Below, in pieces: positions 2,781-64,000 of a stretch of DNA of 64,000 nt. The notes beneath the pieces were generated by a model, which made no database searches, was not told the origin of the DNA, and worked only from the letters and a program-made list of their open reading frames with translations. The position numbers were made by a program, and so were the translations under genes. Origin of the DNA: Callorhinchus milii (lineage: Eukaryota). The first letter of the stretch is position 1. Every line of letters begins with the position of its first letter. Where the stretch lies: the NCBI RefSeq assembly GCF_018977255.1, contig NW_024704764.1:9052001-9116000 (forward strand), read 5' to 3'.

Positions 2781-3726
2781 CACGAGCATTAAAGCCTACG
2801 ATTTATGCGCTGTCCCTCTGCGTTTAAAACAGCTGTCAGCCCTCAACGAGAGATGAGGAGATTAATTATTGGCTTGCAATATTCTTAATACAAACAAGTG
2901 AAGTCGCCTGAACATTTCGGCGTTCTCGCTTGCCGTTGGCTTAGAGGTTTTACTCGGGTTGTTGGCTCGTGGAATGAGCTCCAGGTCACGCCTCCATCAC
3001 TAGCCTCCATTATATGTTAAGTTGAACCTCCCCAACCCTCTACCCGCTGCCTCCGCCCGACTGACTCCGTCCTGCTGCATGTCCCTCGCACCCTCCACTC
3101 CACCATCGGTGGCTGCGCTTTCGGCCACTACCCCCCGAAACTCTAGAACCCTCTCCGCCTTGCTCCCTTCCCTCCCCATCTTTAAGTCGGGTCTGGAGAC
3201 CTTCCTCATTGACCGTGCCCTACAGTCACCTCTCACCTCCGTCTCAGAGGAATCGTGGCTTAACTGTGCTTGAAGCGGGGGCGAGAGAGTCATTAAACGA
3301 GATCCCCGAAGATCACAGGGAGGTAGAAGATCCGTTATCCAACTGAATTACGTCACGACTCTCCTCTGTGCCTCTAAGGGAGGATTTTAAGAAACTCCAT
3401 AGATGGTGTTAACAAACAGTTAAAGTCTCAGCTGTGTCTGAAGGATCTCTGGGGACCTGAGCAAAGCAAAGCCTCAATGCTCTGACCAAAGGGGAGTGGT
3501 TCATTAGAAACAAAGTCTGCGTGAAGTTGCGTTCCTTTTNNNNNNNNNNNNNNNNNNNNNNNNNNNNNNNNNNNNNNNNNNNNNNNNNNNNNNNNNNNNN
3601 NNNNNNNNNNNNNNNNNNNNNNNNNNNNNNNNNNNNNNNNNNNNNNNNNNNNNNNNNNNNNNNNNNNNNNNNNNNNNNNNNNNNNNNNNNNNNNAGGTCT
3701 CAAATGCTGCAGTTGTTGTGTGAGCC

Positions 3727-6700: not shown

Positions 6701-8790
6701 ATTAATATTATTATTATTATTATTAGGAGCGCTTAATCATTTTGTGTTGGGGGGGAGACACGCTGCTGTGCGCAATCGGCCGCCGCGTTTCGCCCACAAA
6801 ATACACAAGTCGGTTCGCTTGACGCTACGTCCCGTGAGGCGCTTTGAGGCGTCTCGAAGAACGCGAAGAGGCGCCGTGCGCTACCCGAGGGTTATCATTT
6901 TGGCAATGCTTCCCCACGGTTCTCTCGGCGGACGCCAGTTTAGGGGTCTCTAATCGCTGTCGTTCCTTCCCTAAAGGGACCCAGAACTGTTTCGAGACCA
7001 AAGACGTGGTGTACGAGAAGCAGAAGAACCCTCTCAATCCCGACGTGGAGGAGTTTATGCCCACCATCAACCGGCAGGTCCTGGAGACCGAGGACCAGGC
7101 GGCTTTCAAGGTGGGGCAGAAGACACCCAAATACCTCAGCTTCATCAACCTGAACAGCAACAATGAGTGGGGTCACCCGCGAGGCTACAGGATCCGGGTT
7201 GTCAGCTACACCCCCGATAATTTGCCCCCGGAGGATCCGCAGGAGAAAGGAATTTCCTGGCACAGGTACGTTGGGGTTGGGGCGGTGGCAGCGGGGGAGT
7301 AGGGGTGGGGATGGGGGCGGGGGGGGGGGGCTGGTGGAGTGGGGGGGCTGCATTTCTGTGAGCGAGTAGTAATCGTGGACGGAAAGTGTCGATTCTTTCA
7401 AGAGCAAATGAGATCGATTTCTGCTGGAAAGTAATATCTGGGGCGACGGCGTACAGTCTGGGGACAAGACATGTGCGAGCGACTGCCAGGGATGGTGGAA
7501 GGCGAACCAGATGGACCTCGGTCTTCTTCCGCCAGCAAGTTCTTACCTTCTTATGTCCGAGTCCAGAGGCAGGGGCGTGGGGGTGGAGGTTGGTGGGTGG
7601 GTGGGGAAGGGGAACGGAGGGGGAGGTATGGAGGGCAACAGGAAGTGAGGCCTGGGACCTAAAGAAAGTTTCAAGACCCTCCTCATCGACCGCACCTGCG
7701 GTTTCGCCCCCTACCCTTCCCCCCCCCCCCCACCCCCTCCCTCCCTGTCCTCCAACCCTTCCTGATCCCAGCCCCCGGCTCGGGTCCAAATCCCCGACTG
7801 TCCAGCGCCTCCTGACGTGAAGGGCGCCGTGTAAACGTCATGTGTTGTCGTTGTCGTCGTGTCTGGTGATCAGGTACCAGTTGGCTGTGACCCAGCACAA
7901 GGAGGGGGAGAGGACGAGCAGTAGCATGTTCAACCAGAACGACCCCTGGAATCCCGCCGTTTACTTTGCCGGCTTCATCAACAACGAAACCATCAAAAAC
8001 CAGGTAACAGTATCGTATAATATACAATGCGGAGCCAAACTCCCGATTCCAACTCCCGCTTACGTCTCAAATGGGTGGTGTCCTGCCGGCCTAATTCCGA
8101 AAATTATTAGCCGCAGGTTGGGCGAGAGCCAAGGCTTGGGGGGGGGAGGTGGGGGGTGGTGGTGGGATCCCAGAGTCTACCCGGCTAAACCCACACGTAG
8201 CTTGGCCATTGATAGCGCTGTCTGGCCAAGCTCTCCCGCTGCTTGTCCAGCTCGGACCATCCAACCCTTTAGGGCTTTGGCTGCTGGGTTAACAGGAGCC
8301 GAGTGAGAGGATTCCCTGCCCCCAGTGACTGGTCGGACCCTTCCAAGGGCAACCGAGGCCGTCACAGGTAGAGGGCTCAATTCCCACATTCCGTTGCCAA
8401 ACATGTCACCTTGGGGCCAGCTCTCCTCCAAGGTGACGCGTTTTTTTTTTCAGCATCTCTCCCTCCCACACCCGACGTAACATCGAGGCCGATTTGTTCC
8501 CTGTTCAAAAGGACCTGGTGGCGTGGGTGACGGCCGGCTTTCTGCACATCCCGCATTCCGAGGACGTTCCCAACACAGCCACCGTCGGCAGCGAGGTGGG
8601 CTTCCTCCTCCAGCCCGTCAACTACTTCAAACAGGATCCCTCCATCTTCTCCATGGACTCCGTGTACATCGAATCGGCCAGCAAAGAGCAAGAAGACCAC
8701 TGCAAGACCAATCCCATGGCCTGCCTGCCTAAAATGGCCAGCTGCGTCCAGCCTTTCCCGCTTTTCACCTACGGACAGACGGAGGATTAA
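3727..8790 (+). CDS. AOC3: Membrane copper/TPQ primary amine oxidase (AOC3/VAP-1 or AOC2-like), 4 coding exons, about 758 aa
   Basis: Exons 3727-5305, 6977-7265, 7874-8003, 8512-8790; all GT-AG, phases 1/2/0, 2277 nt with open frame. N-terminal signal anchor [27 protein letters not shown]; catalytic Asp in [10 protein letters not shown]; TPQ motif STIGNYDY; Cu-binding HTH and GFLHIPH; C-terminal NPMACLP. The 4-exon layout is that of AOC2/AOC3. Exact AOC2 versus AOC3 orthology is unresolved. Confidence 0.93.
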
Positions 8791-34359: not shown

Positions 34360-37300
34360 TCAGTCGTCCTAAGGGGGGAATTAGAAAGGGGTCGAGTGTT
34401 AAAAAACAAATTGTTGTAACGTGGAGAAGATCACGCCCACAAATGACAATTGTTCATCGAAACCACTCCTGTGATCTCGTCAAGCAAACAGGATGTTTGA
34501 AAGGAGGTTGGATTAATCAGGGTATAATAATAATAATAATATTAATAATATAATCCTTGCATTTGATACAGCGCCTTATCGCGTCATCGAGACGTCTCAA
34601 AGCGCTTCACGTGACACACTGTAAAATGGAGTGACCGTGTATTTTTGTGGCCGATATTCAGGGCTATGGAGGAAAGATGGAGAGATGGGATCAAAAGAGC
34701 TAAGAAACTGACGAAGCAGGCTCGGTGGGCTGAATGGCCTCCTCCTGCTCCGTATGCCCTAGAGCTTTCCCTGCTGGCGTTACCCGTCTGTGTGGCTCAG
34801 GGCTGGGAGCTGGAGGTGTCCTGGGGAAGGGAGCGCAGAGCTGGGGAGGGCAGCCTTGGGTTGGGAGGGTGGGGGGTGGTGGTGGGGGGGGAACCCACTG
34901 AGAGCTGAGATACTGAGCTGTCACCACTCCCAGCGACTGACACACTTACATCCAGGTCGTCCATCGAAGGCGGAGGGCCATTGTCCTTCATGTCTTTCAT
35001 CATCTGGGAACAGAAACGGCCAAGTTTACACCGAGTGGGGCTCAGCCCCTTAGGGGGAAGCGTGTGGGGTAAGGAAACTTGCCAGAGGTTTCGCGCTGAC
35101 CCGCCCAGGAATCGAACCAGGGAGGGGGGGGGGTCATTGCGCTTGAGAGGCGAGCGGGTTAACCACTAACCATTAACCACGGGGACTCCACAATGAAGCT
35201 CGAAGAGAAGACAGACAAGATTGAGCTGGAAGTTGTGAGGCACGCGGAGCGGGGTGGGGTGGGGGGGAGGGGAACGGGCTGCGAGGTCGTTTCCTGGGCG
35301 CTGCCCCGCGTGAAGGGCGCCGCGGAAGTGCAAGTTGTTGTTGTTGTGAGGACGCCGCATGGCGAGAGCTGGCCTCACCTCCGCGTACTGTTGGATGTCC
35401 AGGAGTTGGTCATCGTCGGTGCTCCAGTCTCTCCAGTTGTCAAAGTTCACCATCAGCCAGACNNNNNNNNNNNNNNNNNNNNNNNNNNNNNNNNNNNNNN
35501 NNNNNNNNNNNNNNNNNNNNNNNNNNNNNNNNNNNNNNNNNNNNNNNNNNNNNNNNNNNNNNNNNNNNNNNNNNNNNNNNNNNNNNNNNNNGCCTGTGTC
35601 GGGGCTAACTGTGTGAGGAGTTACAGCCCATTCATTGATACATCCCTTCCTTCCTTCCTTCCTTCCTTCATTTTTGTTTGGGGTGGGAGGGGGGGTTGGG
35701 GGGGAGGGTTTGGGGTGGGGGGGGGGGTGGGGGGTGGGGGTCAGCCGGGTGCATTTACGTCACTTTTGTGAATATCTGTGTCGCATACTTTTTTATTCTG
35801 CTCAGCAAACCCGTCACCATCCTTAAGAGTCTCCAAACCCAACTGAGAATTCCATGTATCTCACCTACACATGGAAATCCCAGAGATAGGGGTTGGCAGG
35901 AGCCAAGGTTTTGGGGTGGTGGTGTGGGGGGTAGGAGGGGTATATTTATTGGGTTTTATATGACTAGCGGCTATTGAAATAATATTAATACAATAATATT
36001 CTTCGGGTTTGATATGGCGCCTTATCGCGTCCTCGAGACGTCTCAAAGCGCTTCACGGGATATTCTTCAAGGAGAAGCCAAACAGCTACGTTAAGCAACG
36101 CACTCACCAACAGGGAGGGACTGGGAATTTTGCTGAACCCTAACTGTACCGGGTTACTCAGGACATCGCCGCAAATTCTCCGGCAGCGCAGTAAAAACAA
36201 GAGGGCGGGGGTGGGGGGGGGGGTGGTGGGGGCGTCCGACAAGCCGTGGAGCCACGCATGTCCAACCCAAGGCAAACGTACCTTGACCTTCTCTTTGGTC
36301 AGTCGCGGCCAGGCTCGTTTACCTTCCACCTTCCTCATGAAGAGCGTCACCGAACGATCCGAGCGCTTTTCTCTCGAATCCTGGTCCGTCCACGGGGGGG
36401 GGGGAGACATAACAGAGGCGTTTTAGGGACGAGCAAAGGGCAGGACGTCCCACCGAGGCTTTCGCGACTAAGATTCCCAACCCAAACTTCGCGCTTCTGG
36501 CACCCCAGCCTGCTGACACCCTGCGCCCCCCCCCCAAACCCTTTGGCACTCCATCCCACAATCCCCCCGCCTCCCCCTTCCCCTCCCTTCCATCCCTCGC
36601 CTCCTTGAAGGCAGGTCTCAAGGCCCTCCTCTTCAACCTCGCCTTCGGTCACCCTCCTCCGCCACCTACTGATCCCAACCCCCAGCTCGGGTCCACAAAA
36701 CCCTGACTGTCCAGCGCCTTGGGATGTCCTCCCGACTTGAGGAGCTCTGTTGTTGTTGTTGTTGTCGTTGCTGTACTAGTTACCGGTGAAGAATAGCGAT
36801 GGCTGTCGGCTCAATGCTGGTGAGCACTACTTACACTGGGCTGCACTCTTGTATACAGCTCAATGTTATTGTACAGCTCCACATTATCCTCTGTTTTGCA
36901 ACTGTTGAGGAAGGAGAACGAGTGTCACTGGGGTTCAGAGCGACTTGCGAACAAATCCCTCCTCAAGTCGGTCCCTCAATCCACGACTGTGCGCGGCCGG
37001 CTGCCGCCTTTCGCCCCCACAGAACATACGGTCACTACACTTTAACAGCAATGATAACCCTCGCGTGTGACACAGCGTCCTATCAGGTCTTCGAGGCGAC
37101 TCAAAGCGCTTTGCGGCATATACTGGAAGACGTAGTGGCAGCCAATGGCGCACAGCAGCGTCCCCTCAAACACTCGCGGACGGAGCGACCAAATTTTATT
37201 TATTTTTGGAATGGATCATGTTGAAACTTCTGAGACGTCTCGAAGACGTGACAAGGCTCTGCGTCAAACGCAAGGATTATTATTATTATTATTCATACCC

Positions 37301-38228
37301 ACTGACGCAGACCGTTACCAGCTGCGACCGGTGCAGTTTGTACCTGAATATCAGCCGATCTTTTTTAATCTTCACGTCGACCTCTTTGCTGTCTTCCACC
37401 AGAAACTCGACAAACACGTAGTTTTTGCGGTCGTACCACTGGGTTTTCGCCGGCTGCCTGTGGTCGTACGCCGCCGAGGGTTTCCTGCAAATAAAAATAA
37501 AGAGAGAGAAGAAAGGGGACGTTTAAAATAAGGCAAACCTCAGGCGATCCTTGTTTTAGGCTTCGAAGCAAACTTCAAACCGATGCTTTTATATATATAC
37601 GTATACATATATAAAAAAAAACTTCCAGAACTTCTCACAACTGTAAGAGCTTTGGCCTCGTCGTCAGTGAAAGCCGTTGCCTTGAAATTTTAAACCTAAA
37701 ATGACTAAAATAATCCGAATAATCCTCATCGTCGTCGTCATAATAATCCGTGAGTTCGCCGCAGCGCTTTTCACCTCTCCGGAGGACGTTCCCGAAGCGC
37801 GCCACGGGATTCGCCGTGAAGCGTAGTGACTGTGAAAGTTGTAGCTGAACGATTGAGATAAGTGAACGAGACATTTTATTTCGTCTTAAACCTGCCGTAA
37901 AAAGGGGGGGGAGGAATTCTCTCAACAATCCCATTGGAATTAAAATCTCCTGAGCAACCCCCACCACCCCCCCCCCCAACCCCACCCACTGTCAGTCAAA
38001 GCCCAGGATGGGGGTGAGAAGGGCTCACATAAGCTTTAAACTACACCCCCATTTGCGAGGGGCCACTTTTATTTAAACCAACATCAGTCACTCAAGCCTC
38101 AATGGTGTCTGTTTCTATTGCATCAACCTCCCATTAAATTAGAACACAGCCCTCCCAGTAACATCTATATATATAATATATATATATGTATAAAAATACC
38201 TGCAAGCTCCTTCTTCCCCATTGGGCAT
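34360..38228 (-). CDS. PTGES3L: p23-like CS-domain Hsp90 co-chaperone PTGES3L, 7 coding exons
   Basis: Exons 38228-38200, 37484-37344, 36901-36835, 36380-36282, (5' end in N-gap) 35462-35379, 35003-34950, 34368-34360 (stop). Has QPAKTQWYDR, WPRLTKEK, WLMVNFDNWRDW and PPPSMDDLDDD*. Lies directly upstream of AARSD1 as in mammals. The first exon is less certain. Confidence 0.9.
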
Positions 38229-38379
38229 GGTTGAGTCCCAGAGCGAGAGAGAGAGAGAGAGGAGAGAGAGAAAGAAAGAAAAAAAGAGAGGAAAAAAAGA
38301 AGAAAACTGGAAGGGAAAAGAAAGTTTTCAGCCGAAGGTTTCAACCAAGTTTACAAACGTTTAGGAAACAGTCGCGCAT

Positions 38380-38525
38380 AAGGCAGTTGCTGCCTTGTAA
38401 AAGCAGGTCCCTGGTGTCTATATTTAGTTTGCCCATTTTTGGAAGGGTTTCTGGTCATCCACTTCATCACATGTTCTGCCCTTTGCCAACGTACAATGGT
38501 TCCCCTCCGTTAGCACAGCTGTCTC
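38380..38525 (-). promoter_or_regulatory. Muscle-type promoter module of PTGES3L (MEF2, CArG, E-boxes)
   Basis: CTATATTTAG 38418-38427, CCATTTTTGG 38433-38442, CAGTTG 38384-38389, CAGCTG 38516-38521; all 150-300 nt upstream of the ATG. Confidence 0.6.
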
Positions 38526-39739
38526 ACACCACAGGCTATTGGCCACGGAGGCCGTCTCTCACACCAACTTACCCCCCCCCCCCCCCCCCCACACACAGAA
38601 GTTTCTGCCAAACTTTTTTTTTGGAGAGAAGAGTTCCAGACGTTTCCAGAAATGTCACCGAGCCTCTGAGACGTGGAGCCGAACGACGCTTCCGAAAGTG
38701 GATAATAATAATAATAATAATCCTGGCATTTGACACAGCGCCTAATCACGTCTTCGAGGCGTCTCAAAGCGCTTCGCAGAACGCGCGCTGCGAAAGGGTG
38801 GTGACTGTATATTTCGTGGGTGGAACCCGGCAGCCAATCGCGCGCAGCAGCGTCCCCCGCAAACACTCGCGGATCGAGCGATCAAATTGCTATTATTTCA
38901 CATCTTCGCGACGTCTCGAAGCGCTTCACAGAATATACTGTAAAGTTAATCGACTGTGTACTACGTGGGTGAAAGCTTTGAAATGTAGTGACTGTTGTGG
39001 TGAGCAACCCTGTAGTTAACGTGTGAAAAACAAGCCACAGAGCAGAACAGCCAATTAATATCCATTTCTTTTTGGGGGGGGGTGGGGGGTGACTTTGTGG
39101 AGTTTGGCCAGGAACTCACGATAATTCCCTCTCTTCCATGTGTTACCCTGGGAACGTTGCCAGGAAGTTCAGGGTTTCACGTCTCACTCCGTGATCCATT
39201 GGGCGTCGGGTTGGAATCTGGTTGTGTGCGCAAATCGAACCGATTCCCAGCGACTGAGCCACGGGAGAGATTGCGAGCGTGTTGGTGTTTAGAAATAATA
39301 GTGACTGGAGCTCTCTGCTCTAATCCCATTCCCTGCTCTCTCTCCCCGTCGCGGCTGTGCTGGTGCTCGCTTCCCCCCACCACTGGAGCTCTCTGCTCTA
39401 ATCCCATCCCCCTCCTCTCTCCCCATCGGACCCGGGTAAGAATTTCCCCGTACTGCAAACTTTGCGAGACGAGCAGCGAGCGAAGAGGTGGGGAAAAAAA
39501 AACAAATGACATTTACACATCGCCTTTCACGTCGGGAGGACGTCCCAAGGCGCTGGACAGTCAGGGGTTAGGATCAGGAGGGGGGGGGGGTTGGATGGCA
39601 GGGAGTGGGGGTAGGAGGGTGACCGAAGGCGCAGTCGAAGAAGAGGAGGGTCTCGAGACGAGAAAAGTTAAAAAAAAAAGCAGGAGGAGGTAAGGTGTTG
39701 TTCTTAGAGAGAGAGAAAAAAAATCGAAACAGGTAAAGT

Positions 39740-39745
39740 TTTATT
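39740..39745 (-). terminator. Putative polyadenylation signal of the CERS-like gene (AATAAA)
   Basis: tttatt on + strand about 390 nt past the stop, after a U-rich 3'UTR. Confidence 0.5.
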
Positions 39746-40131
39746 TGCAGAAGTCAAAAGGAAGAAAAAGGTTTCCAGCAAAGCAGGTCCAAAAAAAAAA
39801 ATCCTTAATTGTTCTTTGGGAGAGTTTTAATTACAGTGTAATATTCCGCCCTAGAAAAAAAAAATCTTATTTTAATTTGTTTTGATCAGGTATATAAACA
39901 GTCCAATGTACATTTCCTTTTTTTGTCCAAACGAACACGTTACAAAATAAACATCCTAATGAGCAAATGCGATCTTGACCGTCTCTCTCTCTCTCTCTCG
40001 CTCTCTCTCTCTCGCGCTTTTTTTTTGTAAAAAAAAAAGCCTCTTGTTTTCTTTTTGTTTAAGACACACTTGAATCCTGAGAAGTACTTGGTTCCATCGA
40101 GTCACTGCGCTAAAAAAAAAAACAAGGACCG

Positions 40132-43100
40132 TCACTGTGTTTTCCGTGCGTCCGGTTGATCTTCTTCCTCTGAGCTGCTGTCTACATCACTTCGGTCATC
40201 TTTGGACACCTGAGAGAGAGAGAAAGAGAGAGAGAGAGAGGGAGAGAGAGCGTCACCTTCTCGTATTTGCATGAGAAATATTTGCAACCGTTCGGGCTTG
40301 GCCCCAGCGCAGCGATTACGCTCAACGAACTGGGCCGACGGGTGTGGTTAACAAAACGTCTCGTTAATGAACGGTAACCGTAACAATCCTGGCGTTTGAT
40401 ACGGCGCCTGGTCACGTCGTCGAGACGTCTCAGAGCGCGTGACGGGATGCGCGGGGAAGTGCAGTGACCGTGCATTGCTGAGGGCGAAGTGCTGCACTGG
40501 AGAGTCACCTTAGACCACGTGGTTAGTAAAAATAAACTAATAATAATACTAATACTAATAATAATCTGCAGGTTTGGGTGAGGCGGGAGGAAATCTGGAG
40601 GTGCTTGGAAGGATTTTGCCGCGAGGTGTAGTGACCGCGTGAGTTTTGGCGGGCGTGTGACCCAGAGAGAGAGAGCGAGAGAGAGAGAGAGCGAGAGGTG
40701 TGGAGAGCGCGGGCTGCACCTTTCCCTTGTGAAACGCTTTGAAGACCATTCGGATGATGAGGTAGGACCAGTAGATGTGCATGACCTGGAGGGTGAGCAG
40801 CAGCAAGTTGATGAAGCCCCAGATCCTGAAGGGCCCGATGATCTCCCAGCTCTCGTAGAACACCGACCTGACACTCCTGGAACGTAGAGAGAGAGAGAGC
40901 GTGTCACGGAGACAGACGTGTGTGGGGGGGGGGGGGGGGGGGGGAAGGTGCGGCGATGGGGGTGGGGGGCAGATTCAAAATGCCGCTTCAAACGCTTGCA
41001 ATCACTCGCTTCAAAGCTCTGCTCAAGACCCTCCTCTTCGATCGTACCTTTGGGCACCCTCCTAACCCCCCCCACCCCCACCCTCCCTGCCCCTCCACCC
41101 CTCCTGATCCTAACCACCAGATCAGGAGCAATGTCCAGCGCCTCGGGATGTCCTCCCAACGTGAAAGGCGCTCTATCAATGGAATCTTGTTGTTGTTGTT
41201 GCTTTGCCAACAGGCCTCGTGGATCCCTCTGACTGTAACCTGTTGGGTGGGGTGGGGGGGTGGGGGGGGGTTGGGAGAGCCTGGCTTTTTTTTGACCCGA
41301 CAGCTAGAATTGTCACACGCGCTGCCTCAAAGTGGGGGGGGGGGGTTAGGGGGGGAAGGTCCTCTTGCCCTCGCTGCGCGACCACACGAGGACGGACTCA
41401 CTTGATGGGATAGATTATCAGCCGGGTCACGATGAACACCACGGCGAACAGCAGGAAGAACGTATTACACAGCCTCTGCCACTTGGCGTAGTTTGCCATT
41501 TTAGCGAGCTGCAGAGATAAGGAGGAGAGGGGTTAGCGGGGTGGGGGGGGGGGGGGTGGGGGAGAAGGAGTGGGGGGGAGGGTTTGGAGAGAAGGAGGAG
41601 GTGGGGGTGGGGGCAGTCTATTTTTTCCGACTCGTGGTTACACCTCGATGTTTCTCTCAAAGACGTGATGAGGCGCTATGTCAAGTGCAAGGATAATTAT
41701 TAGTAGTAGTAGTATTATTATCGAAGCGACCGTGTATTTTTGTGGCCAGTTGACGAGCGGATTGACAGTCGACAAGCCCCCCCCACCCCAATACCCCCCC
41801 TCTCCCCCCCCCCCCCCCCTCTCTCCTCCAACACACACCCCCGCCCCACTTAGGCTCCGCGCTCACCTCTAAGAAGATGTCAGCCGCGTCGTGCAGGAGA
41901 AGGACAATGGCCCCGGCTCGAATCATATTGGCCACGTACGCGATGGTGAGCAGCAGGATGGTCACGTGGTGGTGGATGCACATCACCACAAAGTCCTGAA
42001 GAAGACGCCGCCGCCGTCAAAAAATAACCGTTATATTGGGGTCCTCCCCCACCCCGCACCATCCCTCCACCCTGAAACGCCCTCCCCCGCCCTGACCGCC
42101 CCCACCCTCCCATTTTACCAAACGTTTGGGATGGACGTTGAAGATCCCGCAATTTTTACCGGGGAAAGAATAAGATACGGGAGGAGGGAGGAGGGGAGAG
42201 GTTCAGGGGACGACGATAAAATGTCGGTAACCTGGGGGGCAATACAAAACAGCCTCAACCCCCCCACTCCCCCCCCCCCCCCACACCACCACCCCGACGT
42301 CACAAACGTCTCCTGTCGGGACTGGCCCGGTCCGCGCGGGAGGGAGGCCAACGGCGGCAGCGGGAGCCGGTCTTACCTTCCTTTTCACGTCGAAAAACTG
42401 GGAGAAGATCAGAGACCCGTAGAAGCCGAACTCCGTCATGTAATGGATGTAGATTTCAAGTGAGAGTTCCTGCAAAGGGAGGGCAGGGTTCACCCAGACC
42501 GCCCCCTTCCTTCTTCTCTTTAACTGCGCCTTTGGCCAGGTAGCCCTATTTGCTCCCCTTCCCTCCCCCCCCTCCACCCCCCAGCCCCAACGCCCCCACC
42601 CAGCTCAGCCACTCCCTCCATCCCAGGAAAGTACTTTGAAAACCAGCCCCGTGTAGTGCCAACTGATCCCACATCCTCCCCGGAAGCGAACGCGCTACTA
42701 CCCGTTAAAGCTGATCTTTCCGATGATTCTTCCAACGCGCAGTAAAACCCACGGCCACCACACTCGACAGTTAAAACCCTCCGACGCCGCTGACGCGAAA
42801 GCCGCCGCAGCGGACGCAAAGGGTCATTATCGTCCATTGACAATAACGGGAACAACAAATGATTAGTAAAAACACTTTCCGACCGACCGCGAGGATTTTT
42901 TTTAGAAAAAAAAAATCGCATAACTTTCTGGTGTTTTTTTTTCAAAATAAAGTCGAGGTAGTGAAAGAATTCTTACGTGAAAGGGGTACTTGTTCCAACA
43001 TTCCCTGGAATCCCAAAGCCAGGGACTCTGCGAGAGGAGAGGAAATACACACGGAATTAATATTTCCAAACGGATTTAACTTTTTTTTTAATATAGTTAC

Positions 43101-46100
43101 CATCCCAGTCCAACCCCCAAACCAGCAGATTTCTATCCAGCTATTTTTTTTTTGGGGGGGTGCGGTGGGGCGGGCGGGGGATTTAATATTTTCTTTAAAA
43201 AACTTTCTGTCATTTAAATGGAGGAACTGTAGCGCAGCAGTTAGAAGCACTCGCCTCGCGAGCGAGCGAGGGTGGCACCTCGGGGAGAGGTCATCAAACT
43301 GGGAAAATGTTACCGGTGGAGTTCCACAAGGACCTGTTTTGGGACCACTTCTGTTTAATGTTTTTCAGGAAGGACCGGGGACCAGGACGGTGGCTAAGTT
43401 GGCGGATGACTCCGAGCCCACGAGGGTGGGAGGTTGCGGAGCTGGCCGGGGTAGGTGGCAGGAGGACTGGAGCGCGCTTGGGAATTGGGCGGATCAGTGG
43501 CGGACGAAATTCAGCGTGGAGAAATGTTAAGATACTTCACACGGGGACAAAAAAAAAAAATCCTGGAAGGGACTATTTATTTGAATGGAAGGGAAATAAC
43601 GTGTGTGGGAAATGAAAAGCACCTGCGGGGTCCTGATTGACAATAAACTGAAGCTCTCCCAACAATGCTCTGTGTCGGTGAGTAAAGCAAACCAGACGTT
43701 GGGATGCACCAACAGGTCAATAGCAGCCGAAATAGTGGGGTCGTCCTGCCACTGTACACATCATTGGCGAGACCGTACTTAAGAGTCCTTGCGTGCAGTT
43801 CTGGTCGCCGCAGGACAGAAGGCGTATCGGAGAAATCGAGAAGATACAGAGGAGGGCAACCAAAACGACTGAGGGAATGGAGGGGACTGGACTACGAGGA
43901 GCAAACTAAGTAAATTGTGTCTGTTCGCGCTGGAAAAGAGCAGATTGAGAGGCGACATGATTCTAAAGGGACAAAGTAATAGAGATCGGGACCGGCTGTT
44001 CCAACTTGTCCAGAACGGCAGAGCCGGAGGGCACGGCCCGCGATTGAATGCAGAACGAATCTACGCAAACGCTACGTCAGTGGGCGAACAGCGGACCTGT
44101 GGAACAGGCTCCCGAGGGAGACGTCGATTCTTTCCAACGCAGGTTAGATTTCTTTTAGGAAGTAACATTATGGGATGTAGCACGTGGGGAGTTTGGGGCA
44201 CGTGTACTTGCGACCGCCAGGAAGGCGAACGAGATGGTCCTTGGGTCCAGCATTTCTTTTGCTCTTATGGCCATCGATTCCCGGGCGGGGTGAAACCTTA
44301 GGCAAATTTCCTTACTCCACACAAACTTGCCCAACATTTCGCCCGGCCAGGATTAGAACTCTCTCACGTGTGAGGCGAGCGCTCCAACCACTGAGCTACA
44401 AATGCAAGGATTCTTTGAAATAATCAGAACAATAAGAACAATTATTATTTAGCGTTAGCTTTCCTTTCGGGGAATCGTGTGGAGTTTAGGGGCAATTCGC
44501 GCAGGTTTGGGATGATTTCCTGTTGTTCTTCCTCACCCGCTCAACCCCCCCCCCCCCCACTCCCGCCCGCCCCCACCCCCACCGCGTGTGCGCAGGTGCC
44601 ACGAGGTGATAATTGTAATAGTTGTGCAACCTGAATTCAGTGGAATTGTTTGCTAACCTTTGACAGGTAATAAAAGCCAAACACAAAGGCCCAGAGGTAG
44701 AACGCAAACTTCCACCTGAAAAGAGAGGAGATCAGAGCTTTGGTACACACGGCAACGAGCCTGTAGACAGCTCGGGTTACATACCAAAACTACCCCACCA
44801 CCGCCGCCGCCACCAACAACAACAACGTGAATTTACAAAGCAGCGTCCCAGAGTGCTTGGTAGTGACGGAGCTCGACACTGGGGAGGGTGGGGAGAGGTC
44901 GAAGAGGAAGGTCTTCAGGCGCAACCTGAAGATGGGGAAGGAAGGAAGGAAGGAAGGAAGGAAGCCAGGAAGCAAGGAAGCAAGCAAGGAAGGGTCAAGG
45001 CAGAGGGATAGTGGGAGGGTGTTTCAGTAACATTACAGGAAGAGGCCATTCAGCCCCTCAAGCCTCCGGTTCAATCTCCTCCATTGTTTTCTGCTCCAAT
45101 CTCAATTCCCTGCTCTTTCCCCACTCCCCGCCATTTGCACCCTTCCTCTTCCCTGGCAAGAGCCAACTCCCCAATCCACCTACAAACGCACAGTCACTGC
45201 ACTTCACAGCAAGCCCCGCGAAGCTCTTGAAGGCATCCTCCCGACGTGAGAGGCACTGTGTCAAACGGGGTCGCGGAGAGCTGAACAATGGGATAGTTTG
45301 AGGCCGAGCCAGAAAGAGAGAGAGAGAAAGATATATATGTAGAGAGAGAGAGAGAGAGAGGTAGGTGTGGGGTGGGGGAGGGAGGGAGGGAGGTGGCTTT
45401 ATCCCCTGTATCTACCAAATGTGGCAGGTGTGTGTGAGAAGTGACACAGGCCAGCAAACAAATTCCACATACAGCTCCTTATTGCAAAGCCTCTCGCAAG
45501 TCTCAGTGAGTCTCAATGGCAGTGGAGCGCCCGACAGTCACCCCCACCCCGCCGACCACTCCCTCCCGCCCCGCTGACCCCCCACACCCCTCCGACCACT
45601 ATGTCAGTGTCAAATTCCTCTTGTCCACGCTGCTTCTCCTATTATTATCCTCCCAACGCCGCCCGCTCTCAGCCACTGACATTGGAGCAGAATTTTTCGT
45701 TAGGTCAGGGTATCAGGGGATGTGGGGCAACGGGGGGGGGGGGGTGGTAATTGGAGTTGAGCTGCAGATCAGCCGTGATCTTACAGAATGGAGGAACAGG
45801 CTTGAGGGGCTAAATGGCCTCCTGTTCCTGTGTTCCTAGAGGAGTGGGCTAAGGCCCATACAGATGGCCCAAGCCAGTCCAGCGGAGGGGGGGGTGAGTG
45901 GGGGGGAGCAAGTCAGAGAGATTGCGAGGTGCTGGGGCATCAAGTGATTTTAGGTGAGCGTGAGGGTCTTGAAATCAATACATCCTGCCACAACAACAAC
46001 AACAACAACAGCAACAAATTACACTTGTATGGCGCCCTTCACGTCAGAGAAACATCCCAGGAAGCCAGTGGCGAAGGCTGGGGTGTTGGGGAGGGTGAGG

Positions 46101-47189
46101 AGTTGGGTGCGGAGTTTGGTGCTGGTGGGGCAGTTTTGAATGAGTTGGAGTTTGTGAATAGCGGATCTGGGAGATGAGTGAGGAGAGGAGGGCATTGGGG
46201 GCTTTATGGAGCTGGAGGAAGACTCAAAAGCGCGTCTCGAAGAAGAGGAGAGGAGAAAGGGAGAGAGGAAGGGAGGGAGGGACAGAGAGAGGAAGGTAGA
46301 GAAGGAGGGTAAGAAGATCTCTTGTTGCTAGTGTGAATTACATGCTCTCGCAGAACTTGGTCAGGAGGCTGGGCCGGTCCTGGTATCTCCGGAGCTTGAA
46401 CCACTGCATCACCTGCCTGGGCTCCCAGTCCAGCTGCTTTGCCAAGTGGCTCAGGTGCTTCTTGCCGGGCTCCTGCAGGGGAAGGAACGAGCACAGACCT
46501 CAGACATCAAGCGTCTCGCTGCAACATCTCTCGCCTGCGCTCAGACCAGGGTTACAAGCCAAACCAGGTAACCCTCGGGGAATCCTGCCAGACGCTGATA
46601 GCTCAGGAGCGCCAGCCCGCCCGCCCGCCCGCCCCACCCCCGCCTTTTACTGATAATAATGATAATAATCCTCGCGTTTCATACAGCGCCTTATCACGTC
46701 TTCGAGGGATGGCCCAAAGCGCTTCACGTGGCGCCCTGTAAAACTGAATCAATTGACTGTGTACTTTGTGAGCGGAACAGTTATGGCAGAAGTCAGTTAT
46801 AAAGAGGTTCATTGTAATGCGTGTTTGCTTGTGGCTTATAGATGGGGGGGGTGGGGGTGGGGAGTGGGGGGGGGTGGGGGGGGGGTGGGGGGGGGGAGAG
46901 AAACTGTGATCCAAGCAAAAAAGTACCCTTTACCCAAAGGTAAAGAAATCTTCTTGGTGGCCGGGGGTGGGGGGGTGCCTACTCCATCCTATCTCCCTCC
47001 CCCCCCCACCCCCCACCCCACCCCCACCCACCGCCCTCTCTGACTCACCGTGGTAATGTCTTTGAAGACTTTCTCCAGTACAATGTTCTGCTGTGCCTTC
47101 TGGATGGGGTTGCAGTTCACTCCCAGTGCCCTGGCAACCGGTGTTGCCACAAACCTGAAGGGGGTGGAGGTGGGGGGGGGGGGTGGGAG

Positions 47190-47221
<32 letters not shown>

Positions 47222-50200
47222 CGACAGTCAACATGGCGGGAGATTGCAAATGGCGCTCACTGTCAAGCGTCCTACGGATTCCGCGGAGAACATCTGTCAA
47301 TTTATTTCTGGTCCCTGCTCTGCCCTCTGTCTCGTGCCCCCAGTCTCCCCCGTTTTGCCACGCAGTTGCCCTACCATACCTCTACCCCCTCCCTCCCCCC
47401 CACTCCCCCCACCTCTCGCTCCATTTTCATCCACCTTCACGTCCCGTCTTAATACAATAACAGCAACAACTTATCGCGTTCACAATATCTTTTCGACAGC
47501 GCCTATGGTCACCTCACCCCCTCCTCACCCCACTCCCCCCCCCAACAACACACAAACTCTGCCCCGCTGATCCCCCCCCACCTCCTCCTCTCCCTCCCAC
47601 CTCCTCCCCCTCCCTCCCCGGCAATGCTAAAGCACTCCGAGACGTTTTCTAGGTAAACGCGGGCTGTGCAGGCACGGGTTGTGTTGATAGCTCGCCAATT
47701 AAGAGATTTTTTTTTTGACGCCCGGAGGTACAGTGANNNNNNNNNNNNNNNNNNNNNNNNNNNNNNNNNNNNNNNNNNNNNNNNNNNNNNNNNNNNNNNN
47801 NNNNNNNNNNNNNNNNNNNNNNNNNNNNNNNNNNNNNNNNNNNNNNNNNNNNNNNNNNNNNNNNNNNNNNNNNNNNNNNNNNNNNNNNNNNNNNNNNNNN
47901 NNNNNNNNNNNNNNNNNNNNNNNNNNNNNNNNNNNNNNNNNNNNNNNNNNNNNNNNNNNNNNNNNNNNNNNATCTCTGGAATGAAGCATAACAGGTAGCT
48001 TTCGCCATAGGGTAGGGCATTTGAATTCTAAATAAGACTCTCTTAATAAGGACTCTCCCCCCTTCTAACCCCCCCCCCCCCCACCCCCACCCCCCCACCC
48101 TCCCCACCCTCCCCACCGAAATTGCCAGCTGAGCACCCGTTAGGGACAGGTAGATCGATCCTTATTAATAATAATACTAATAATAATAATACTCCCGCTA
48201 TTTGATGCAGCGCCTGATCGCGTCTCAGAGCGCTTCGCCGAATGTGCCGTAAAGTGGAGTGACTGTGTGCTTTGCGGCCGAAAGGCGGCAGCCAATTGCC
48301 CCCGGCGACGTCCCGCAAACAGCGGCGGGTCGAGCGACCGAATTATTACTACTGCGAAGGACATTTTTCGAAGGGAAGGGATTGACGCCCCTTCGCTCCT
48401 GACCACACTATAAAGCCCCCCCCCCCCCTCCCACCACCGCCCCCCCAAAAAAACTCTCGCGCGCCCCCCCCCCCCCCCCGACCCTTCTCATAAGACAATA
48501 CCAAGGGAAAACGTTTAAAGCTTTCCCCACAAAGCCGCCCCCAACCCCCTCCCCCCCCTCCCCAAGTCTAAAAATAAATGTGGGCTTTGATTTTTAACCC
48601 TTTCCTCGCGACGTCTGCTGGAAACACATTGCAAATGATTTTTTTTTTGGGGTTGAGTTTTGTTTTAAAATGTGGTGGCGGTGGGTGGGGGGGGGGTGGT
48701 GGGGGTGGTGGGATGGTGGGGGGGGGGGGGGGGGGAGGGAGGAAGAGAGATCAAACACACCCAGACACACAAATCCCAAAGAAATCTGTGTGGGGGCAAG
48801 TGGAATTTGACAGATTATTTAGCTCCCCCTCCTCCCCAGTTAAACCCCCCCCCACCCCCCACCCACCCAATTAAATTGGAGATGACCTGACTGGATATCA
48901 ACAGGGATTAAAGCTTCAAGATATGGTGAGAAATTGGCCATGAGAGAGAGAGAGAGAGAGAGAGAGGTGGTTGGGGGGGGGGGGGGGGTAGGGGTTGACT
49001 CTTTTTTTTTGGGGGGGGGTTCTTCTCTGAGGGTGGGGTTTGGGGGTTGAGGAGGGGTGAATTTCTTCTGTTAAAAGAAATAAGGGGCGTCCTGCTGAAC
49101 TAGGCGTAGCCAATAAAGTTTGCAGTGCAGTGTAGGCGAAAAAAAAGGGAATTTAGCTTTTCTTAAGAATTTGCAATGCTCTGTCTCAGTGTGTGTGTGA
49201 GTGTGTGTGTGTGACACTCTCTGTCTGTGTGTGTGTGTCTTTCTCTGTCTGTCTGTCTGGGAAACTGAAGCTCATCTGTCTGGCTCAGTGTCTTGTGTAT
49301 CTATCTGTACATATGTGTGTGTGACTCACTCTGTCTGTGTGTGTTTGTGTCTTCCTCTCTTAAGTCTACCTCCCAGTCNNNNNNNNNNNNNNNNNNNNNN
49401 NNNNNNNNNNNNNNNNNNNNNNNNNNNNNNNNNNNNNNNNNNNNNNNNNNNNNNNNNNNNNNNNNNNNNNNNNNNNNNNNNNNNNNNNNNNNNNNNNNNN
49501 NNNNNNNNNNNNGTCTGTCTCTCTCTATGTGTGTGTGTGTGTCTCTCTCCCTCTATCAGTCTGTCTCTCTCTATGTGTGTGTGTCTCTCCCTCTCTATCA
49601 GTCTGTCTCTCTCTATGTATGTGTGTGTGTCTCTCCCTCTCTATCTGTCTGTCTCTCTATGTGTGTGTGTCTCTCCCTNNNNNNNNNNNNNNNNNNNNNN
49701 NNNNNNNNNNNNNNNNNNNNNNNNNNNNNNNNNNNNNNNNNNNNNNNNNNNNNNNNNNNNNNNNNNNNNNNNNNNNNNNNNNNNNNNNNNNNNNNNNNNN
49801 NNNNNNNNNNNNNNNNNNNNNNNNNNNNNNNNNNNNNNNNNNNNNNNNNNNNNNNNNNNNNNNNCAGTCTGTCTCTCTATGTGTGTGTGTGTCTCTCCCT
49901 CTCTATCAGTCTGTCTCTCTCTATGTGTGTGTGTGTGTCTCTCCNNNNNNNNNNNNNNNNNNNNNNNNNNNNNNNNNNNNNNNNNNNNNNNNNNNNNNNN
50001 NNNNNNNNNNNNNNNNNNNNNNNNNNNNNNNNNNNNNNNNNNNNNNNNNNNNNNNNNNNNNNNNNNNNNNNNNNNNNNNNNNNNNNNNNNGTCTGTCTCT
50101 CTCTCTATGTGTGTGTGTGTGTCTCTCCCTCTCTATCAGTCTGTCTCTCTCTATGTGTGTGTGTGTGTCTCTCCCTCTCTATCAGTCTGTGTCTCTCTAT

Positions 50201-50979
50201 GTGTGTGTGTGTGTCTCTCCCTCTCTATCAGTCTGTCTCTCTCTCTATGTGTGTGTGTGTGTCTCTCCCTCTCTATCAGTCTGTCTCTCTCTATGTGTGT
50301 GTGTGTGTCTCTCCCTCTCTATCAGTCTGTGTCTCTCTATGTGTGTGTGTGTGTCTCTCCCTCTCTATCAGTCTGTCTCTCTCTCTATGTGTGTGTGTGT
50401 GTCTCTCCCTCTCTATCAGTCTGTCTCTCTCTATGTGTGTGTGTGTGTCTCTCCCTCTCTATCAGTCTGTGTCTCTCTCTCTCTGTGTGTGTGTCTCTCC
50501 CTCTCTATCAGTCTGTGTCTCTCTCTCTCTATGTGTGTGTCTCTCCNNNNNNNNNNNNNNNNNNNNNNNNNNNNNNNNNNNNNNNNNNNNNNNNNNNNNN
50601 NNNNNNNNNNNNNNNNNNNNNNNNNNNNNNNNNNNNNNNNNNNNNNNNNNNNNNNNNNNNNNNNNNNNNNNNNNNNNNNNNNNNNNNNNNNNNNNNNNNN
50701 NNNNNNNNNNNNNNNNNNNNNNNNNNNNNNNNNNNNNNNNNNNNNNNNNNNNNNNNNNNNNNNNNNNNCACGTCTCCCGTTTTACCTTTCGAAAAGCAGC
50801 CGCAACATGTAGATCGCCCAAGTCCACGGCACCAGAAAGTACAGGTCCTTGAGTCGGGGGTAGATCGGGTTCTGGGAGTTCTCCAACTGAGCTCTGGTTA
50901 CGTTGTGTGGCAGCCAGAAGCCCTCGTCCCACACCGAGATAGAGACCCACATCGGGAGCCAACCTCGACCCCCCTCCAT
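40132..50979 (-). CDS. Ceramide synthase, CERS5/CERS6-like (Hox-like plus TLC/Lag1p domain), 10 exons, about 367 aa
   Basis: Exons 50979-50786, 47154-47049, 46472-46342, 44715-44658, 43027-42977, 42469-42377, 41995-41867, 41508-41402, 40876-40720, 40209-40132; 1104 nt, all GT-AG, open frame. Has [33 protein letters not shown], the Lag1p motif [13 protein letters not shown]...[27 protein letters not shown] and VSKDDRSD. An alternative start ATG is at 50952. Confidence 0.93.
43280..44270 (+). mobile_element. CR1-clade LINE, 5'-truncated and decayed (RT C-terminus and 3' end)
   Basis: Translates [16 protein letters not shown]...AKLADD...[29 protein letters not shown] and [14 protein letters not shown], with frameshifts. 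Confidence 0.9.
45700..45838 (+). mobile_element. CR1-type 3' tail
   Basis: cagatcagccgtgatctt...gaatggaggaacaggcttgaggggctaaatggcctcct. Similar tails at about 22415-22460 (+), 14165-14210 (-), 8978-9030 (-) and 45035-45090 (-). Confidence 0.7.
49513..50546. repeat. About 40-bp compound microsatellite array (CTCTCCCTCTCTATCAGTCTGTCTCTCTCTATGTGTGTGTGTGT)n in CERS intron 1, broken by gaps
   Basis: Tandem units read directly between N-runs. Confidence 0.92.
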
Positions 50980-52360: not shown

Positions 52361-52679
52361 TTTACACAAACAGTCACTACGCATACACACACATATAATT
52401 ACACAAGGATTATTATATTGTATTATTATTATGCAAATCGTCACTACACATACACAGGTACAATTAGGGGCGGTCTGGATATACCGGAAATTTCCCGACT
52501 TCCCTGTGAATGGTTCCACTCCTCTCCCCTCGTTTTGTCCTGACAATCCCGTATGTGACCTATCCACCAGAAGCAGCTCCCTCCTCCATTCCAGCAGCCT
52601 CTGACGGGCTAAAGTCCACCCGAACAGACATGGCCGGTGACCTCGGTTTAATTCTCATCCCATTGCTGTATTGGGGGCG

Positions 52680-53800
52680 GGCGGGGGGGCATTGGTGTGT
52701 TGGGGGGCATTGGTGTGTTGGGAGGGGTGATGGTGTGTTGGGAGGTAATGTGTGTTGGGGGGTGGGCATTGGTGTGTTGGGGGGATGATGTGTGTTGGGG
52801 GGATGATGGCGTGTTGGGGGGATGATGGCGTGTTGGGGGGATGATGGCGTGTTGGGGGAATGATGTGTTTTGGGGGGTGGGCATTGGTGTGTTGGGGGGG
52901 GTGATGGTGTGTTGGGGGGTGTGGGCATTGGTGTGTTGGGGGGATGATGGTGTGTTTTGGGGGGTGGGCATTGGTGTGTTGGAGGGGTGATGGTGTGTTG
53001 GGGGGATGGGCATTGGTGTGCTGGGGGGCATTGGTGTGTTGTGGGGGGTGATGGTGGGTTGGGGGGAGGGTGATGGTGTGTTGGGGGGCATTGGTGTGTT
53101 GGGGGGGGAGGGGTGATGGGGTGTTGGGGGGAGGGGTGATGGTGGGTTGGGGGGGAGGGGTGATGGTGGGTTGGGGGGAGGGGTGATGGTGGGTTGGGGG
53201 GAGGGGTGATGGGGTGTTGGGGGGGCATTGGTGTGTTGGGGGGGGAGGGGTGATGGTGGGTTGGGGGGGGAGGGGTGATGGTGTGTTGGGGGGAGGGGTG
53301 ATGGGGTGTTGGGGGGAGGGGTGATGGTGGGTTGGGGGGAGGGGTGATGGTGTGTTGGGGGGAGGGGTGATGGTGTGTTGGGGGGGCATTGGTGTGTTGG
53401 GGGGGGAGGGGTGATGGTGGGTTGGGGGGGAGGGGTGATGGTGGGTTGGGGGGGAGGGGTGATGGGTGTTGGGGGGAGGGGTGATGGTGGGTTGGGGGGG
53501 AGGGGTGATGGGGTGTTGGGGGGAGGGGTGATGGTGGGTTGGGGGGGAGGGGTGATGGGGTGTTGGGGGGAGGGGTGATGGTGGTTGGGGGGGGAGGGGT
53601 GATGGGGTGTTGGGGGGAGGGGTGATGGTGGGTTGGGGAGGGGTGATGGGTGTTGGGGGGGGGAGGGGTGATGGGGTGTTGGGGGGAGGGGTGATGGTGG
53701 GTTGGGGGGGGAGGGGTGATGGGGTGTTGGGGGGAGGGGTGATAGGGTGTTGGGGGGGGAGGGGTGATGGGGTGTTGGGGGGAGGGGTGATGGTGGGTTG
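52680..53800. repeat. G-rich minisatellite, about 18-25 bp units (GGGGTGATGGTGGGTTGGGGGGA and GGGCATTGGTGTGTTGGG)
   Basis: Tandem array read directly; it produces the Pro/His-rich spurious ORFs. Confidence 0.95.
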
Positions 53801-54196
53801 ATAATAATCATCGTAACGCTTGCATTTGACGGAGTATCCTTTGAGGCGCCTCAAAGCGCTTCACGGGATACAACGTTGCACTTGGAAAGGACTGAGTGAG
53901 TGAGTGAGTGAGAGCGAGTGAGTGACGTGAGAGGGGGAGGAGACGCGGTAGTGGGCGGGGCTGCGTGGCCAGCGCGCGCGCGCTGACGTCACGGCGGCGC
54001 GGCGCGGGCGGGGCGCTGACGTGGCGCTCGCGCCGGGCGTGGGCGCGGGCGCGGCGACGTCCGTCGGCGTCAACCGCCGAGCGCCGGAGCGCGAACGGCG
54101 GCCGCTGTCGTCGAGCGAGCGTCGGCCGCGCTGACAAACCCCTCACCCCCTCACACACACACACCCTCACACACACCCACACACACAGAGAGAGAC

Positions 54197-64000
<9,804 letters not shown>

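Follow-up and report, generated by a model that had tools for sequence, protein, structure and literature searches.

The closest described relatives of the gene considered here are the ceramide synthases (CerS) encoded by vertebrate CERS5 and CERS6; the gene lies in a 64,000-nucleotide stretch of the Callorhinchus milii genome, positions 9052001-9116000 of contig C23 (NW_024704764.1), referred to throughout as the window. CerS6 works by a ping-pong reaction via acyl-His211, with a pocket comprising Tyr142, Tyr189, His212, Asp239, Asp242 and Arg275, and its tunnel is sealed by the loop between transmembrane helices 6 and 7 (TM6-TM7), which sets the preference for 16-carbon (C16) chains (PMC11919693). 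The 11-residue chain-length loop corresponds to E299-S309 in CerS5 (PMC10122649). In human, CERS5 maps to 12q13 and CERS6 to 2q31; the Hox paralogon comprises 2q/7/12q/17q (PMC2211742). A phylogenetic study of CerS6 counts six vertebrate CerS families, and neither "shark" nor "lamprey" occurs in its excerpted text (PMC6315813). We read the window gene as an intact third CERS5/6-type ceramide synthase, likely of early-vertebrate whole-genome duplication (WGD) origin and predicted to be a C16 enzyme, and give this reading, taken as a whole, a probability of roughly 80%.

An intact ceramide synthase distinct from CERS5 and CERS6

The gene, hereafter the window CERS, consists of ten minus-strand exons running from an ATG at 50979 to a TGA ending at 40132, with a frame of 1104 nucleotides that encodes 367 residues plus the stop; all nine introns (9/9) are GT-AG. 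The model matches, letter for letter, the automatically annotated NCBI protein XP_042199314, "ceramide synthase 6-like [Callorhinchus milii]" (P0137). The initial annotation had claimed a complete ten-exon CerS of about 367 residues, with the CERS5/6 exon layout and divergent from both CERS5 and CERS6. All of this is borne out by the open frame, the splice sites, the identical database protein, and the exon lengths and identities given below; the four motifs it quoted are located at 50916, 41505, 40854 and 40209. The parts of the gene, in window coordinates, are these:

50786..50979, minus strand: exon 1, with the ATG, the WLPHNVT luminal segment, the predicted N-glycosylation site Asn26 and TM1
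47049..47154, minus strand: exon 2, 106 nucleotides, a length of the CERS5/6 type
46342..46472, minus strand: exon 3, 131 nucleotides, with the Hox-like domain and basic residues Arg133 and Lys139
44658..44715, minus strand: exon 4, from the gene model
42977..43027, minus strand: exon 5, from the gene model
42377..42469, minus strand: exon 6, with Tyr197 of the active-site pocket, and His189 and Gly198, typical of the clade described below
41867..41995, minus strand: exon 7, with catalytic His219/His220, the extra His221, and His246, Asp247 and Asp250
41402..41508, minus strand: exon 8, with the end of the Lag1p motif and Arg283
40720..40876, minus strand: exon 9, with the chain-length loop (residues 298-308), His323 and Trp326
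40132..40209, minus strand: coding part of exon 10, with the dimer-motif variant DDRSDVD, a serine/acidic tail and the TGA
39740..39745, minus strand: AATAAA, a candidate poly(A) signal; two ATTAAA also occur, at 39876 and 39831

The protein carries the features of the CerS/LASS family, namely a TLC domain (PF03798, E 3e-47, full length), the His-His pair and two aspartates of the Lag1p motif, and the C-terminal DxRSDxE motif, here DDRSDVD with a final D where several orthologs have E. It also carries those of the CERS5/6 subfamily: a Hox-like domain (Pfam homeodomain, E 7e-7), an ESWEI.GP loop, and exons 2 and 3 of 106 and 131 nucleotides, as in this genome's own CERS5 and CERS6, vs 118 and 119 in its CERS2 and CERS4. 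The window gene is an intact ceramide synthase, distinct from the CERS5 and CERS6 of the same genome, to which it shows 52.2% and 53.4% identity, respectively; those two share 76.3% with each other, and the genome's own CERS6 is 93.5% identical to shark CERS6.

A census of the genome returned 17 matches in a TLC-family search, five loci in an exon-3 search (on C23, C6, C27, C26 and C21) and 20 matches to a bird CERS3 query, all at those five. Gene models and the tree identify the genes on C6, C27 and C26 as CERS6, CERS5 and CERS2, and that at C21:5.32 Mb as CERS4; a more distant CerS gene at C21:7.50 Mb we take to be CERS1. No CERS3 locus was found in the C. milii genome by the TLC-family, exon-3 or bird CERS3 searches, with homeodomain-type CerS matches at five loci only; this chimaera may have lost the gene, or CERS3 may be missing from the assembly or too divergent to match. 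Because CERS3 was not found, the genome seems to have six CerS genes, and the description "seventh vertebrate CerS" stands for the paralog group and seems not to hold as a count of genes here.

Neither canonical name fits the window gene. It falls outside the CERS6 clade and does not lie between STK39 and NOSTRIN, whereas the C6 gene satisfies both; likewise it falls outside the CERS5 clade, within which the C27 gene nests, on a HoxC-type chromosome. True CERS5 and CERS6 occupy their own loci on two other Hox-bearing chromosomes. Database names are a poor guide: the C27 gene (C27:1184968-1228398, P0027) is labelled "ceramide synthase 6 isoform X2", yet groups with CERS5 (99/91) on the HoxC-type contig; several of the shark records called "CERS6-like" are likewise CERS5. 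The genome's own CERS6 has a GC donor site at exon 2 (C6:29517626-29517521), and the small alternative exon known from CERS6 records (AGKWNPLH) occurs at about C6:29489812.

In comparison with human CerS6 (PDB 8QZ6, 8QZ7; PMC11919693), the window CERS has the same fold, catalytic His/Asp set, Asn-linked glycan site (Asn26 aligns with glycosylated Asn18), Hox-like domain, exon lengths and position upstream of a G6PC gene. Unlike CerS6, to which it is about 51-53% identical, it has His323 (Asn315 in CerS6), His221, Gly198, a loop ending FRI and a shorter C-tail, belongs to a separate clade and lies on a different Hox chromosome. With vertebrate CERS5 it shares an identical ESWEIIGP loop segment, a His at the 323-equivalent position, the exon layout and a p23 paralog on the chromosome; it differs in having only 52% identity, and the genome's own CERS5 is separate, on C27.

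Hox-bearing chromosomes, phylogeny and the surrounding locus

Hox9 matches occur on exactly four contigs, C2, C6, C23 and C27. Upstream of Hox9 on C23, homeodomain groups 10 and 13, without 11 or 12, lie within 100 kb, a HoxB pattern; C27 shows Hox 9-13, with 10, 11, 12 and 13 upstream of Hox9, within 80 kb and is called HoxC-type. The group labels on both contigs are those we presume. On C27, CERS5 is 0.5 Mb from Hox9, and the closest p23 match is on the same contig; SWIB/SMARCD-type matches are found on C27, C2 and C23. The order on C6 is an STK39-like gene, CERS6, a NOSTRIN-like gene, SPC25, a G6PC paralog (G6PC2) and an ABC transporter. C23 and C6 each carry a G6PC gene downstream of the CerS gene and in the same orientation, at a distance of about 22 kb from the window CERS and about 31 kb from CERS6; the exons of the two G6PC genes match in order, in a comparison of open frames that was filtered for repeats. 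The CERS paralogs lie on separate Hox-bearing chromosomes among neighbours that are themselves paralogous, as expected of WGD ohnologs. The proposal in the initial annotation of a WGD paralog on the HOXB paralogon gains support from the HoxB-type contig, from the position upstream of G6PC1 that mirrors CERS6-G6PC2, and from a separate clade in the trees. A fourth G6PC-like match, C1:67647848-67648171, has two in-frame stops and is possibly a pseudogene.

Trees were built from 52 rows under LG+C20, with Ciona and two lamprey proteins included, and from 26 rows without Ciona; neither had an amphioxus row. The 52-row tree recovers CERS5 (99/91), CERS6 (99/98) and a group of CERS5, CERS6 and the two lamprey proteins (94/93). 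The window CERS and its chondrichthyan and amphibian relatives form a clade of their own (98/96) outside that group, which we call the extra clade. In the 26-row tree the extra clade has support of 91/92, and a vertebrate group excluding hemichordates has 99/97. Approximately unbiased (AU) tests were run in IQ-TREE, with p values given below as mixture model / LG+F+G4; site frequencies were taken from the unconstrained tree, and five of the nine constrained trees had a fast search only, both of which favour rejection. Subject to that, the tests reject joining the extra clade to shark CERS5 (0.0005/0.0002), to shark CERS6 (0.0004/0.001), to CERS2/4 (0.003/0.002), whose exon 2 and 3 lengths also differ, or to CERS5 and CERS6 to the exclusion of lamprey (0.015/0.007). 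The tests likewise reject the frog members as fast-evolving copies of either CERS5 or CERS6 of amphibians (p <=0.002). Every topology left by the AU tests implies a duplication that predates the jawed-vertebrate radiation, and the window gene is probably a product of the first round and the sister of the CERS5 and CERS6 pair. A first-round split that separated Hox A/B from C/D, a grouping that has been reported (PMC10972751), would yield the topology of the best tree.

The neighbours of the window CERS within the window are:

37343..37483, minus strand: an exon of PTGES3L, a p23/PTGES3 paralog, downstream of the CERS; a closer p23 match sits on C27
12864..17618, minus strand: G6PC1, further downstream, its exons matching in order those of the paralog that follows CERS6 on C6
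54197..64000, plus strand: RUNDC1, head-to-head upstream, with its exon-1 frame and a RUN domain from window position 63961 (E 5e-30), extending beyond the window end

The probable ATG of RUNDC1 is about 3.2 kb from that of the CERS. Along C23 the order is a BECN1-like gene, a copper amine oxidase, G6PC1, an AARSD1-like gene, PTGES3L, the window CERS, RUNDC1, RPL27, an IFI35-like gene and a VAT1-like gene, which we take to be the same order as at human 17q21; names beyond Pfam and PDB labels, that of RUNDC1 included, are likewise presumed. The amine oxidase gene (AOC3-type, Pfam E 8e-75) is at the window start, 3724-8787 on the plus strand. Both p23 genes were missed by a genome search with the Pfam CS domain and found with an exon query. 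Between the IFI35-like and VAT1-like genes there is an open frame of 1131 residues (C23:9140336-9143728, plus strand) that gives a weak match of the DTX3L KH-like type. Exon 1 of the CERS is flanked by long simple tandem arrays, at window positions 49379-50546 in intron 1, with an (AG)/(AC)-rich unit, and at 52560-53850 in the head-to-head spacer toward RUNDC1, with a GGGGGT-rich unit.

Distribution in other vertebrates and predicted activity

Elasmobranch orthologs, 79.9-86.1% identical to the window CERS, are named in at least 16 species (15 of the 27 members of one cluster, plus Mustelus), and the available sequences indicate that the lineage is pan-chondrichthyan. A Logan contig of 1592 bases encodes an uninterrupted 358-residue relative, 94% identical to the window CERS, and for that reason appears to represent a spliced transcript in a close relative. 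Among the best 150 of 4808 matches in a search of 50% clusters, four divergent proteins, from Ascaphus, Rhinatrema, Acipenser and Polyodon, group with the shark clade, and a profile search added one further member, from Mixophyes; the ESM Atlas returned generic CerS clusters only. The sturgeon, paddlefish, frog and caecilian members are 43-50% identical to the window CERS, no more than CERS5 and CERS6 are. Of 357 alignable proteins, 25 have the residue triple H189, Y325 and M333, and each of these belongs to the extra clade. His189 by itself is not diagnostic, as it occurs in 52 of the 357, teleost cers5-like copies included. Those belong to a fast-evolving teleost CERS5 duplicate (P0074, P0169 and others named "CERS5-like") with residues convergent with the extra clade (His189; a loop ending YRAW), and their orthology to the extra clade is rejected (AU 0.003/0.005). 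The lineage probably survives in acipenseriforms and amphibians also. Among the best 120 of 625 matches in one search and the best 120 of 319 in the profile search there is no member from an amniote, teleost, gar, bichir, coelacanth or lungfish, although absence or loss does not follow from searches that missed known members: neither P0003 nor P0220 was among the best 120 of the profile search, and even the shark clade was missing from the matches listed with the 50% library. We infer the orthology of the sturgeon and amphibian proteins, and also later losses in other lineages.

The window CERS aligns with human CerS6 free of gaps over residues 16-343, at an offset of 8 (E 5e-120). Its AlphaFold model (mean predicted local distance difference test score, pLDDT, 86.7; predicted template modeling score, pTM, 0.83) has human CerS6 as its best fold match (E 5e-25, template modeling score 0.75-0.85). 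His219/His220 and Asp247/Asp250 align with CerS6 His211/212 and Asp239/242, and the active-site positions kept are His219, His220, Tyr150, Tyr197, Asp247, Asp250, Arg283 and Trp326; His323 is a tolerated equivalent of CerS6 Asn315, and the basic residues at 133 and 139 are retained. In its 11-residue loop the window CERS matches the genome's own CERS5 at 8/11 positions, CERS6 at 7/11, CERS4 at 3/11 and CERS2 at 2/11.

Intact catalytic residues and a chain-length loop of the CERS5/6 kind lead us to predict a C16-type activity. By analogy with human CerS6, the enzyme would reside in the membrane of the endoplasmic reticulum (ER) and N-acylate sphingoid bases with mainly C16 acyl-CoA. His219, helped by His220, would take the acyl chain off acyl-CoA as an acyl-imidazole; the sphingoid base would bind at Tyr150, Tyr197, Asp247, Asp250 and Arg283 and then accept the chain; and the TM6-TM7 loop would cap the tunnel at about 16 carbons. 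Of this prediction of an ER ceramide synthase with a C16-centred preference, the specificity taken alone we hold to be somewhat probable.

The amphibian members P0171, P0220 and P0322 (Ascaphus, Rhinatrema, Mixophyes) keep the catalytic residues and have a rewritten chain-length loop, and both frog members (Ascaphus, Mixophyes) are without the N-terminal WLPxNxT segment. The loop of sauropsid CERS6 (P0323, finch; P0024, skink-cluster) is rewritten too (ELYEALGNFPAL in finch), unlike that of mammal, frog and fish CERS6, which hints that canonical CERS6 specificity may have changed in birds and lizards.

Competing explanations and significance

Several observations weigh against the reading offered here. 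As to origin, the genome CerS searches gave no match on C2, the fourth Hox contig; branches in the extra clade are long; the acipenseriform pair joins it at only 79/81, in an 11-row clade; Ciona shares an open fork with it at the base of the 52-row tree; and FastTree places it outside the hemichordates, which LG+F+G4 does not reject (AU 0.027/0.084). The mixture model also leaves standing the extra clade as sister to all CERS6 (0.15/0.013) or to all CERS5 (0.24/0.041), and the sturgeon protein with gar CERS5 (0.069/0.010; with gar CERS6 the values are 0.041/0.010). In a preprint of the hagfish paper, one sentence of the excerpted text groups Hox A,D vs B,C (PMC10153176), under which the window CERS would be sister to CERS5, still an ohnolog. 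The FastTree placement, the Ciona fork and the empty C2 would suit an ancient duplicate unrelated to WGD, one that arose before vertebrates or as an early segmental copy and that sits on the HoxB chromosome by chance. We consider this improbable, since the mixture model rejects it (p 0.027, vs 0.08 under LG+F+G4), the vertebrate clade stands at 99/97, and the pattern is that of WGD, each of three Hox chromosomes carrying one copy and two of the three showing CERS followed by G6PC in matching order and orientation. Very improbable is a fast chondrichthyan-specific copy or translocated ortholog of CERS5, CERS6 or the missing CERS3, which the NCBI labels "CERS6-like" or "CERS5-like" and the failure to find CERS3 might suggest. 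Both models reject it at p <=0.003, on constrained trees given a fast search only, canonical CERS5 and CERS6 are both present, and the window CERS has exon 2 and 3 lengths and a loop of the CERS5/6 type and only 37% identity to bird CERS3; nor do trees or AU tests nest it within CERS5 or CERS6 as a lineage-specific copy, an outcome the initial annotation had allowed for, as it had a misjoin across the flanking gaps. Runs of N do occur on either side of exon 1, within intron 1 and in the interval toward RUNDC1. Sequence from 35591 to 47737 is free of them, which puts exons 2-10 together with the p23-like exon (37343-37483) on one unbroken stretch, and no run of 50 or more was found in 70 kb of flanks. 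With one block continuing on both sides, BECN1-like gene, amine oxidase and G6PC1 on one and RUN, RPL27, IFI35-like and VAT1-like genes on the other, presumably the human 17q21 order, a misjoin is unlikely; with an open frame, canonical splice sites and full-length orthologs that join all exons in many species besides, the chance of a misjoin or a pseudogene is negligible.

The remaining alternative accepts the same duplication and disputes the function: the protein might use another acyl-chain length or act chiefly by pairing with other CerS in heterodimers and tuning them. A sequence that first diverged from CERS5/6 by about 47% and then stayed highly conserved among chondrichthyans (80-86%) would fit such a change, as would the retained C-terminal dimer motif, DDRSDVD, in the case of a partner. 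A shifted specificity is conceivable because of fixed clade changes, His221 (Leu213 in CerS6) and Gly198 (Trp190) adjoining the active site and a loop that ends FRI vs YPS in CERS5/6, together with the wholly different amphibian loop. Yet the first eight loop residues are those of CERS5, the catalytic residues are all kept, and the loop is the reported determinant of chain length (PMC11919693, PMC10122649); we regard this alternative as doubtful. As tentative, too, is an extended form of the WGD reading, in which a seventh lineage, first-round sister of CERS5 and CERS6, persists in chondrichthyans, sturgeons and paddlefish and some amphibians, was repeatedly lost elsewhere, and uses an acyl chain different from that of CERS5/6, the amphibian members above all.

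The paralog is apparently undescribed, its protein already being in databases under an automatic and misleading "CERS6-like" name. No description of an extra CERS5/6 paralog was found in a literature search that mostly lay outside subscription papers and did not extend to the supplementary files of the large genome papers on chondrichthyans, where the gene may already figure as an ohnolog; four supplementary files of PMC8789539 contain 0 matches for shark, Callorhinchus, Acipenser or Rhinatrema. The automatic label "ceramide synthase 6-like" covers clade members in sharks, rays, Acipenser, Polyodon, Ascaphus, Mixophyes and Rhinatrema, and true shark CERS5 as well; the finding corrects such labels in shark, sturgeon and amphibian annotations, which do not recognise a separate paralog. 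The surprise is moderate, ohnologs retained in cartilaginous fishes and lost in mammals being a familiar pattern and an expected kind of finding. If true, a seventh lineage alters the ancestral CerS set of jawed vertebrates and puts the CERS5/6 expansion on the Hox paralogon. With an intact core and loops that range from CERS5-like in sharks and sturgeons to rewritten in amphibians, members of the clade are naturally occurring variants on which the loop model of acyl-chain selection could be tested, and such tests bear on selective CerS6 inhibition. Should its members use a different acyl chain, the clade would amount to an experiment of nature in how these enzymes gauge the length of the chain.

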